A DNA stretch of 64,000 nucleotides from the NCBI GenBank assembly GCA_964588805.1, contig CAZPRJ010000002.1, positions 71,586 through 135,585 on the forward strand, written 5' to 3'. Of this stretch, positions 15,695-16,951 are shown piece by piece (the stretch's first letter is position 1; every line of letters begins with the position of its first letter). Under the pieces are notes generated by a model. The model saw nothing but the letters and a program-made list of their open reading frames with translations, was not told where the DNA came from and searched no databases. Position numbers and translations under genes: made by a program. Source of the stretch: an uncultured Microcoleus sp. GTDB taxonomy: Bacteria > Cyanobacteriota > Cyanobacteriia > Cyanobacteriales > Coleofasciculaceae.

Positions 15695-16063
15695 AAATCT
15701 TTTCTGTCAGAACTATTTCCCATAGTATCATTATCGAAATCACTAAAAAATTCATCAAAATCTTTAACGATAACGTTTAATGCAAACTGGTTTTGCTTTA
15801 ATGGTTCTTTCCTCAACAATTACTTTTGGGGAATATTCCAGATTGAACAAGCATCCATACGAGCAAAGAGAGCAATCAGACGATTACGACGATTTGAAAA
15901 CCAACCGTCTTCCTTACCTGCCCAAAGACAACTGGGAAGATGCCCTTTTGGAGCTTTTTCAAAATCATATTCAAATTGATCAGATCGATGCCAAGAGTAT
16001 TTATCTTTTGCTATTTGAGTTTCTATCGTTTGCCATCTTACCTAGCAATCAGTTGATGGTTTC

Positions 16064-16306
16064 TCAATTGATGTCGTCAGGTAAGTCATCAATCGACATT
16101 CCCGCTTGTTCTAAAAGTTCTTTCAATCGTTTGATTTGCCCTAGAGTAAGCCTAAGTTTGTGTTCTCCTCTTTCGTGACGCCTGATTGTTCTGGGTGTTG
16201 TCCCTAGTTCACGCGCAAATTCATCCTGAGTCATATTTAGGCGTTCACGTACCTGCTTAAGACTTGGCAAGTTAGGGTTGCTATTTGAGTTTCTATCGTT
16301 TGCCAT
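16064..16306 (-). CDS. XRE-family HTH transcriptional regulator (copy 1)
   Basis: Cro/C1-type HTH LKQVRERLNMTQDEFARELGTTPRTIRRHERG; probable start MANDRNSNSN (ORF track extends to 16318). Confidence 0.8.
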   Translation of the reverse strand: MANDRNSNSNPNLPSLKQVRERLNMTQDEFARELGTTPRTIRRHERGEHKLRLTLGQIKRLKELLEQAGMSIDDLPDDIN

Positions 16307-16333
16307 CTTACCTAGCAATCAGTTGATGGTTTC

Positions 16334-16576
16334 TCAATCGATATCATCAGGTAAGTCATCAATCGACATTCCCGCTTGTTCTAAAAGTTCTTTCAACCGT
16401 TTGATTTGCCCTAGAGAGAGCTTAAGTTGATGTGCACCTCTTTCATGATTACCAAGTGTTTTGCGGGTTATTCCCAATTCGCTAGCAAATTGATCTTGAG
16501 TCATCCCTAAACGCTCACGCACTTGCTTGAGAGTTAGCAAATTGGGGTTGCTATTTGAATTTCTATCGTCTACCAT
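16334..16576 (-). CDS. XRE-family HTH transcriptional regulator (copy 2, tandem paralogue)
   Basis: LKQVRERLGMTQDQFASELGITRKTLGNHERG; probable start MVDDRNSNSN (ORF track extends to 16606). Confidence 0.8.
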   Translation of the reverse strand: MVDDRNSNSNPNLLTLKQVRERLGMTQDQFASELGITRKTLGNHERGAHQLKLSLGQIKRLKELLEQAGMSIDDLPDDID

Positions 16577-16951
16577 TTTACCTAGCGATGGGTAAAGTTT
16601 ACCCATTAAACATAAAAATAACGGGGAAACGCCTAGAGCAAGTTTCCCTGTCTCCCTATGGGTAGTTTCTCATACCAAGCAAGTCCGCCAAGAGTTAAAA
16701 CTCCTGGCTAATAGCCCAAGTCCACTCAAGTGGACTGAAATTTATGCTGGATGAGTGAAATAAGGAGGTGACCCCTAGACAATTATCAGGAAATTACTAG
16801 CTCGTACCGTTTTAAGTCTTCTATGAGTAACAGGCGATCTGCGCTTCGCAGCAGCGCTTCGCTATCGCTACTTTGGCGAGTATATGCGGTAAGCGAAGCC
16901 ATGCCGTTAGGCTTATCGCCCTTCACTAAAACAATCACACCAATAATAGCA

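Follow-up and report, generated by a model that had tools for sequence, protein, structure and literature searches.

Why a cyanobacterium should carry two similar repressor genes in direct succession, immediately upstream of a gene pair that looks like a defence module, is the question raised by a 64,000-nucleotide (nt) stretch of DNA from an uncultured Microcoleus sp. (contig CAZPRJ010000002.1, positions 71,586 to 135,585; hereafter the window). A tandem repeat at 16008..16589 on its minus strand contains two genes for small XRE-family (Cro/C1-type) helix-turn-helix (HTH) regulators, here called gene 2 and gene 1 in the order of transcription. The initial annotation took the repeat for a recent duplication that may tune the dosage of a repressor of the adjacent ATPase/DUF4276 pair. 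Comparison with related loci, which are designated by L numbers, leads us to a different answer. It is probable that the repeat is a mixed-type, co-transcribed XRE array, built by recombination within a module family that is specific to the Coleofasciculaceae.

Two diverged genes in one repeat

The tandem repeat is real, although the figures first given for it (a 269-bp unit in 2.2 copies) need a small correction. Tandem Repeats Finder returned a single array at 16008-16586 with a period of 270 bp, 2.1 copies, 84% matches, zero indels and a score of 829, and a repeat search gave two units (16008-16277 and 16278-16547) at 84% identity together with a 42-nt family of three members (16008, 16278 and 16548). 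The whole repeat thus comprises two 270-bp units and the 43-nt head of a third; in a gene-centred phase, the units run from 16590 to 16321, from 16320 to 16051 and from 16050 to 16008 on the minus strand. Each full unit contains one intact minus-strand open reading frame (ORF) for an XRE regulator, and the two pass the Pfam HTH_3 cut-off of 23 bits with 43.0 (gene 1) and 38.6 bits (gene 2), which bears out the original description of two Cro/C1-type genes in head-to-tail order.

Read along the minus strand, the array consists of gene 2, a 27-nt junction, gene 1, the same 27-nt junction and a dead gene start (16036-16001). Gene 2 (16334..16576) encodes an 80-amino-acid (aa) regulator of type 2 with the recognition region GITRKTLGNHERGA, and gene 1 (16064..16306) encodes an 80-aa regulator, a chimera, with the recognition region GTTPRTIRRHERGE. 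The likely starts at 16576 and 16306 are those indicated by the alignment of the family and by an AGGTAA ribosome-binding site common to both genes; if translation of gene 2 began instead at an upstream ATG, at 16606, the product would be 90 aa long. The junction between the two genes (GAAACCATCAACTGATTGCTAGGTAAG; 16307..16333, minus strand) is composed of about 14 nt of natural 3' flank and about 11 nt with the ribosome-binding site, and a scan of these 27 nt for a palindrome, a promoter-like site and a terminator-like site found none of them. An identical second copy (16037..16063, minus strand) precedes the stub of a third HTH gene (16001..16036, minus strand), which reads MANDRNSNSKR and then a stop, with family homology stopping at 16008. 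A partial third unit had been recognized from the start, but it had been placed at 16546-16606. The extra 0.15 unit is best assigned to the promoter-distal end, where the 43 nt of 16008-16050 form a dead gene start, in which the ATG is followed by 10 codons and a stop, while 16548-16589 is the working 5' end of gene 2.

Two metagenome assemblies of the Joint Genome Institute (JGI), made from separate samples (3300040801 and 3300040789), match the window at 100% identity over 13.1 kb (L001) and 4.5 kb (L002), including the array, and an assembly artefact, which had been named as a possible source of the second copy, is therefore very unlikely. The copies differ at 48-49 positions, so that reads are able to tell them apart. 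The JGI gene calling annotated a 132-aa ORF antisense to gene 1 while missing gene 1 itself. We rejected this plus-strand ORF (15780-16178); it is probably no gene, because its matches elsewhere are solely the antisense strands of HTH genes, and its first part overlaps a gene remnant described below.

The two repressor proteins had been thought to be about 85% identical. They are 78% identical (65/83 by BLASTP; 62/80 for the 80-aa forms), and a value of about 84% applies to the DNA only. This identity is a mosaic along the unit, with about 83-90% over the first 45 nt, 63-73% in the HTH centre, and 97-100% in the last third and spacer. Between the two centres (nt 49-171) identity is 72%, synonymous divergence (dS) is about 1.35 and the ratio of nonsynonymous to synonymous divergence (dN/dS) is 0.14; overall dS is 0.77. 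When each centre is compared with its own type elsewhere in Coleofasciculaceae genomes, identity is 85-93% and dN/dS is 0.06-0.10. For gene 1 the centre has 85-88% identity to type-1 genes in other genomes (dN/dS 0.06-0.07), and for gene 2 it has 88-93% identity to the type-2 genes of L003, L005, L012, L013 and L016. The comparison shows two intact paralogues under purifying selection. Because the centres have a dS of about 1.35 and each copy is nearer to its own type in other genomes than to its neighbour in the array, the repeat is one of old paralogues and not a recent amplification.

The position of the differences is consistent with a change in specificity. An AlphaFold model of the HTH protein (predicted local distance difference test score, 75) has helices at residues 16-22, 27-34, 38-45 and 55-67. 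Of 18 amino-acid differences, helix 2-turn-helix 3 (residues 27-45) accounts for eight (Fisher p=0.03), and the last 25 residues (56-80) for one (p=0.008). This concentration suggests that the two proteins differ mainly in the part that would read DNA. As for the near-identical tails, DNA identity is 82-97% across the whole family and 94% within the array. Gene conversion as their sole cause was rejected, since the tail is conserved family-wide and the within-array excess is weak evidence on its own. The perfect identity of the two junction regions over 59 nt (16008-16066 and 16278-16336) is a stronger sign of recent exchange than the similarity of the tails.

The orf208-XRE module family and its palindromes

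The HTH protein has just 33 relatives in a large protein collection, all of them from Coleofasciculus, Allocoleopsis and related cyanobacteria. Their tail (RLKELLEQAGMSIDDLPDDID) is near-invariant, and their recognition region falls into discrete types. A genome scan yielded 27 loci of the family, to which a scan of metagenomes added 9, and in 25 of the 27 a homologue of orf208 lies divergently upstream of the HTH gene. In the window, orf208 was annotated as an ORF at 16823-17449 on the plus strand; its true start is M44, which gives a protein of 165 aa encoded at 16952..17449. The constant partner of the HTH family is accordingly orf208 and not the ATPase/DUF4276 pair. Several genomes contain two or three loci, and L004 and L014 each hold three modules within 6 kb. 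By comparison of the loci, a full module has five parts, namely orf208, a conserved leader with a hairpin, a type-specific perfect palindrome, an 80-aa XRE gene and about 14 nt of conserved 3' flank. A search of open-access text found no paper on the family with these modules.

All 35 HTH genes that have an upstream region of their own are preceded by a strong palindrome, whose arms measure 6-10 nt and contain no more than one mismatch and whose end lies 7-13 nt ahead of the ATG; none of the four genes that lie behind a tight junction has one. The palindrome sequence varies with the recognition helix, and at least 12 helix/palindrome pairs can be distinguished. Helix GITRKTLGNHERGA goes with palindrome ATGGGTAAAnTTTACCCAT (4/4 loci), GTT[PT]RTIGRHERGE with AGGACAAnTTGTCCT (8/8), GMAANTISRHERGQ with ACTCTACAAnTTGTAGAGT (4/4), GISRRTVIRHEAGE with AGTGACCnAnTGTCACT (6/6), GIT[GS]RTIRN[YH]ERGA with ACAGGAAAAnTTTTCCTAT (4/4), and GIARNTISRYESGR with TGCTACGnTTCGTAGCA (2/2); several singletons provide additional pairs. 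Similar helices pair with similar half-sites, e.g., RE[ST]INRYERGV with GTGACGAA. Variation of the palindrome inside conserved non-coding flanks is the pattern expected of repressor-operator pairs that co-evolve, and these pairs are best described as predicted ones. In most types the dyad symmetry reaches the single central base, which argues for a DNA site over an RNA hairpin.

The predicted type-2 operator of the window is the perfect palindrome ATGGGTAAAGTTTACCCAT at 16588..16606, with 9-nt arms and a 1-nt centre, which ends 11 nt before the ATG of gene 2. It also precedes the type-2 genes of L012, L013, L016, L094 and L096, and it occurs once in the 64-kb window. For gene 1 no such site was found: a search of the window for the type-1 operator (AAGGACAANTTGTCCTT, core GGACAANTTGTCC), the related CCGGAACAAGTGTCCGG and a hybrid type-1/type-2 site gave nothing above chance. 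The type-1 site of L005 and L006 reads AAAAGGACAACTTGTCCTTTT. The upstream region of the ATPase gene was searched as well, and neither the type-1 nor the type-2 palindrome is present there.

Upstream of the type-2 palindrome lies the conserved family-wide leader (16612..16673, minus strand), composed of ATGAGAAACTACCCATAG, a hairpin GGGAAAC...GTTTCCC (16623-16649) and a T-run (16612-16621 in the minus-strand reading). Across module types, the stem of the hairpin is invariant, the loop measures 11-27 nt, the T-run is present in most loci, and the distance to the palindrome is 15-25 nt. The leader may act as a terminator or an insulator, or belong to the promoter. Hairpin and T-run together resemble an intrinsic terminator or a small-RNA end just before the HTH promoter. 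An Rfam scan of 13500-18000 with E up to 1 gave zero matches, and the leader with its hairpin is therefore not a described RNA family.

The partner protein orf208 has 96 relatives (clusters), confined to Coleofasciculaceae-like cyanobacteria, and neither for it nor for any of these was a Pfam domain or a name found; searches of Pfam, NCBIfam, PADLOC and PHROG with orf208 gave zero matches. Its predicted fold consists of an alpha-beta4-alpha domain, which is KA1/TBP-like, a linker and a small beta-beta-alpha-beta domain, with generic fold neighbours only and without a peptidase fold. The C-terminal domain of about 55 aa (PWxIVRLLPxAQxYTVARFxNRxDAExHxRxLxRxxPxxxFEIVFD) is also found in hundreds of stand-alone proteins of 55-95 aa, and has no Pfam family. 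The genes 3' of the HTH gene vary from locus to locus, often being of a defence-like or mobile kind; among them are HTH-M78 peptidase, PhoD, GST, PIN_8-KTSC, Uma2, GmrSD_N+HEPN, BacA, DUF559, TPR-CHAT, IS200-like, NERD-UvrD and DUF433/PIN genes. A 207-aa protein with zero Pfam or PHROG matches recurs directly 3' of type-2-style module ends (L005, 1529-2152; L016, 1190-1813; L092, 1071-1694).

Exchange at the junction and the scar beside the ATPase pair

Recombination at the locus, which had been proposed as one possible reason for the repeat, is borne out by other genomes, in which the same junction carries other gene combinations. Homologues of the 27-nt junction are present in L003, L005, L085, L092 and L093. 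In the order of transcription, the window has type 2, type 1 and the stub. L005 has the reverse, type 1 followed by type 2, with a type-1 operator and a type-2-like downstream flank. L003 and L085 have a 3' gene fragment followed by type 2. L093 has a fragment, type 1 and type 3, and L092, with a single junction, has an internally deleted gene followed by type 1. Genes behind the junction carry a private head (M[A/T]NDRN...) regardless of their centre, and the second-position genes are intact in the window and in L005, L003, L085, L092 and L093. Gene 1 is itself a chimera with the second-position head in nt 1-32, a type-1 body in nt 33-155 (23 diagnostic sites in the type-1 state) and the common tail, and the database protein P0003 equals gene 1 through residue 35 and type 3 beyond. 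A shared junction with differing contents, together with chimeric genes, points to a junction that is old and to gene bodies that were later exchanged at conserved heads and tails.

Looser tandems, in which each gene has its own leader and palindrome, occur in L008, L011, L083 and L084. L006 and L096 share the flank downstream of the HTH gene and the junction with the ATPase region, L006 having a type-1 gene with its palindrome and L096 a type-2 gene with its palindrome; the difference looks like a clean swap of operator and gene body. In each of three independent deletions (L003, about 640-760; L085, about 500-620; L093, 1-140), the 3' part of orf208 has become fused to the first HTH gene, at its middle or its tail. 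The start of orf208, the leader and the operator are all lost in these loci, and the downstream HTH genes are left intact.

The end of the array has a history of its own. From 16443 to 16008 the window is colinear with L093 (437 bp, 88.6%), which runs on into a complete third gene of type 3. From 16009 down to 14022 it has 93% DNA identity to L095, a locus from a metagenome-assembled genome (MAG) of Allocoleopsis. L095 contains the same ATPase and 185-aa genes without an HTH gene or orf208, and a gene for a TPR/GUN4 protein of 821 aa lies upstream of them. In the window, 15820..16008 on the minus strand holds the final 62 codons of such a gene with its stop; they match the C-terminus of the L095 protein and are out of frame with the HTH stub to which they are joined. 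The "spacer" that separates the array from the ATPase gene is hence a gene remnant, and the stub marks a break that truncated two genes, a third HTH gene and one of the GUN4 family. A GUN4 gene lies near a module in L092 too.

It is correct that the gene pair to which the array had been linked is downstream of it in the direction of transcription. The ABC-type ATPase gene (14576-15694, minus strand; AAA_21 68.6 bits, AAA_15 52.8 bits) is overlapped by a weak DUF4276-like gene for 185 aa (14032-14589, minus strand; 17.6 bits, cut-off 30.2). Directly ahead of the ATPase gene, 84 nt (15695..15778, minus strand) with a sigma-70-like TTGATG-17-GATAAT at 15758-15730 are conserved in the relatives L095, L006, L096 and L005, module present or not. 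At 92-95% DNA identity, the pair is accompanied by one HTH gene of type 1 in L006 and of type 2 in L096, both joined at window position 15778, and L005 has two HTH genes and an extra 207-aa gene near it. The copy number of HTH genes in these ATPase-linked relatives is therefore 0 (L095), 1 (L006, L096) or 2 (window, L005), and the unit types and junctions differ. This variability, together with the conserved upstream region of the pair, suggests that the HTH genes are not its dedicated regulators. The ATPase pair is a neighbour of the array and not part of the repeat.

Further out, an island at 12724-17598 comprises orf208, the HTH array, the GUN4 remnant, the ATPase gene, the DUF4276-like gene and about 1.3 kb of small ORFs. 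It lies between a ZnuA/ABC_tran pair (17599-19644) and an ABC-3 permease gene (11875-12723), and appears to split a znu-type transporter operon. An empty-site comparison between the znuC-like and ABC-3 genes found no fetched locus with the outer flanks of the window. The spacer of the ABC_tran (znuC-like) and ZnuA-like genes contains an 8-bp tandem repeat (GCTCCCCA; 18429-18507, 9.9 copies, 94% identity). On the plus strand, 9007-11667 encodes an 886-aa homologue of the major vault protein (Pfam Vault, Vault_2/3/4 and MVP_shoulder) and adjoins a gene with a serpin domain.

Origin and possible role of the array

In the explanation that we favour, and that we hold to be probable, an old tandem duplication would have created the 27-nt gene-to-gene junction, and recombination at conserved heads and tails would then have swapped gene bodies between types, leaving in the window a type-2 gene, a chimeric type-1 gene and the start of a third. 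Illegitimate recombination or a deletion would have cut this third gene and brought the array up against the 3' end of a gene of the GUN4 family, located ahead of an independently mobile ATPase/DUF4276 block. Transcription would start beside the type-2 palindrome, and a dimer of the gene 2 protein would bind 16588-16606 and repress its own operon. Since gene 1 has neither promoter nor operator of its own, it would be made only as the second cistron. As it also lacks a cis site, its protein would either act in trans on the type-1 operators (AGGACAAnTTGTCCT) of other modules, resident or incoming, or have no role; in the former case gene 1 would add a second 'immunity' specificity, with its expression controlled by the first. 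The invariant tail suggests a common dimer interface or a contact with orf208.

Several points weigh against this explanation. Helix and palindrome are less than 150 bp apart, and their co-variation could partly reflect shared descent instead of co-adaptation. The palindromes also fold as RNA and are called as a covarying helix when the alignment is folded. The type-1 operator for gene 1 was not found in a search limited to 64 kb of the genome, and gene 1 has R where other type-1 helices have G, so that it may in fact recognize another target. Decay is visible in several related arrays, which have lost promoter and operator or carry an internal deletion (L092) or a frameshift (L094), and the second gene may therefore be a passenger. 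The comparison loci, only about 40 in number, are all MAG or metagenome contigs.

It is possible, if doubtful, that the array is a neutral relic, i.e., a by-product of frequent recombination among paralogous modules whose second gene has no role and has not yet decayed. The mixed-type appearance would in that case arise because identical neighbours are quickly lost by homologous recombination. The independent deletions in L003, L085 and L093, which take the 5' part of orf208, the leader, the operator and the head of the first gene, are in keeping with such a process, as are the deletion in L092, the frameshift in L094, the third gene of the window, which is already a stub, and the lack of a matching operator for gene 1 in the window. 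However, gene 1 is intact and has a ribosome-binding site, the second-position genes of the other five arrays are intact too, and the centre of gene 1 has a dN/dS of 0.06-0.07 against type-1 genes, a value which also integrates the time before it joined the array.

A more ambitious view, which we put forward as speculative and unlikely as a whole, is that orf208-XRE modules are diversifying, self-regulating and possibly selfish elements with at least 12 orthogonal repressor/operator types, and that tight arrays are 'immunity collections' that silence other types. Operator-less repressor genes of foreign type would have been captured at conserved gene ends under one promoter, and other module types in the same cell, or incoming ones, would be silenced by them. 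The orf208 protein would sense or inactivate all types via the C-terminal tail, for which the invariant tail would serve as a handle.

We regard it as improbable that the two proteins work as a heterodimer, pairing through the near-invariant helix 4 and C-terminal tail to read a hybrid site, or with the second protein titrating the first. Residues 56-80 are almost the same in both proteins, and also across the family, and both proteins would come from one transcript. However, hybrid half-site combinations in the window are no more frequent than by chance, and the invariant tail could equally contact orf208. The original view, in which a recent tandem duplication raised the dose of a repressor of the adjacent and possibly toxic ATPase/DUF4276 module, is very improbable. 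It can draw on the position of the array, 370 nt upstream of the ATPase gene on the same strand with no terminator predicted between, and on the fact that modules adjoin the pair at three different junctions (window; L006/L096; L005). Neither recency nor dosage agrees with a centre dS of 1.35, nor with two genes that differ in their recognition helices and belong to types with different matching palindromes. As to regulation of the pair, L095 has it at 93% DNA identity without HTH gene or orf208, neither palindrome type occurs ahead of the ATPase gene, the junction is a scar at which two genes are truncated, and the downstream neighbours of the family are otherwise highly variable. Finally, it is scarcely credible that the palindromes are 5'-UTR (untranslated region) RNA hairpins for translation or stability and that the types have no meaningful difference in DNA specificity: RNAalifold does give a 7-pair helix, close in front of the ribosome-binding site, in which both sides show many changes, but the symmetry in most types reaches bases flanking a single central nucleotide, which are unable to pair in a hairpin, similar recognition helices go with similar half-sites, and the variable protein residues lie in helix 2 and helix 3.

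A mixed-type array built by recombination, as favoured here, has partial likenesses among known systems. The proteins of gene 1 and gene 2 are ordinary members of the XRE superfamily; the AlphaFold model is a helical bundle with a helix-turn-helix and comes closest in fold to CylR2, ClgR, C proteins, HipB and the 434 repressor. Repression is type-specific in lambdoid phages. Like the module, phage immunity regions (lambdoid imm, CTX rstR) combine a small XRE-type repressor and adjacent operators that co-vary inside conserved flanks. Repression by rstR is type-specific (PMC7326730). The type-specific pairing of CI, Cro and RstR with their operators has its counterpart here in the sequence co-variation of predicted pairs only. 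In contrast to phage immunity regions, the array has znu-type transporter genes, the ATPase pair and orf208 as neighbours, with no phage genes nearby, and two or three repressor types stand head-to-tail in one operon with an operator at the first only. The HTH proteins matched only generic HTH PHROGs in a PHROG search, and the NCBIfam model phage_RstR scored 24 bits, below its cut-off of 80.

The controller (C) proteins of restriction-modification systems are likewise XRE proteins of about 80 aa with a palindromic site just upstream of their own gene and with self-regulation, which is predicted here. They fall into incompatibility groups defined by the specificity for their operators (PMC3874152). 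The neighbours of the HTH proteins in structure and sequence include C.BclI and C.EcoT38IS, and a palindrome directly upstream of its own gene is found in the array for gene 2 only (16588-16606). However, there is one palindrome here in place of paired C-boxes, the island at 12724-17598 contains no restriction endonuclease or methyltransferase gene, and the PADLOC match to 'Control_protein' is weak and confined to gene 2 (E 6e-5). CapH/CapP resembles the module in having a small XRE repressor and a constant second protein beside variable, often defence-like genes (GmrSD_N+HEPN, PIN_8, NERD-UvrD, Uma2, DUF559, TPR-CHAT). The PADLOC match to capH is weak, and the module differs in that orf208 is not an M78 metallopeptidase and is divergently transcribed, and in that no operator precedes the neighbouring genes. 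XRE antitoxins (HigA, HipB, MqsA) are unlike the array, whose conserved neighbour is divergent and without a toxin domain and whose downstream genes vary; the NCBIfam antitoxin scores are below their cut-offs (MqsA 31 vs 61.8; Y4mF 28.8 vs 71.7; HipB 16.5 vs 79). By these comparisons, the module would resemble a phage immunity region or a restriction-modification controller with specificity groups, yet would belong to neither of them, nor to the XRE antitoxins or CapH/CapP.

Contact-dependent inhibition (CDI)/Rhs polymorphic toxin loci have downstream arrays of orphan immunity genes, in which cassettes are recombined at conserved flanks and units are often truncated. The XRE arrays are similar to these in their cassettes of different specificity, in recombination at conserved flanks and in a truncated unit such as the stub. 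The difference is that CDI/Rhs cassettes encode toxin-binding immunity proteins, whereas those described here encode repressors of DNA-binding type, with no toxin identified. The ATPase pair, for its part, is like the OLD/PARIS-like combination of ABC-ATPase and Toprim, a likeness that concerns the neighbour genes only: an AAA_15/AAA_21 ATPase with an overlapping small DUF4276-like gene, for which PADLOC gave PDC-M25A (3e-23), AriA (7e-21) and HEC-01A/B (HEC-01B E 1e-3). One paper includes DUF4276 in its list of partners for ABC-ATPase defence proteins (PMC11464382), and another calls it Toprim-like (PMC12065111). Unlike in OLD/PARIS, the DUF4276 score is under its threshold (17.6 vs 30.2 bits), and a defence role of the pair is predicted at most.

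What the array offers is not gene dosage for a defence module, but a view of an undescribed, fast-diversifying regulator family of filamentous cyanobacteria. Adjacency to a defence-like gene pair is not evidence of regulation, and here it is a rearrangement scar. Closely related 80-aa XRE proteins with matching perfect palindromes, in at least 12 pairs, form a test set for the stepwise change of HTH recognition, and the series might supply orthogonal repressors for the engineering of cyanobacteria. The mixed arrays prompt the question of whether bacteria stack repressors of different specificity in order to control competing copies of one element family. If true, 'immunity collections' of this kind would be the transcription-factor counterpart of orphan immunity-gene arrays.

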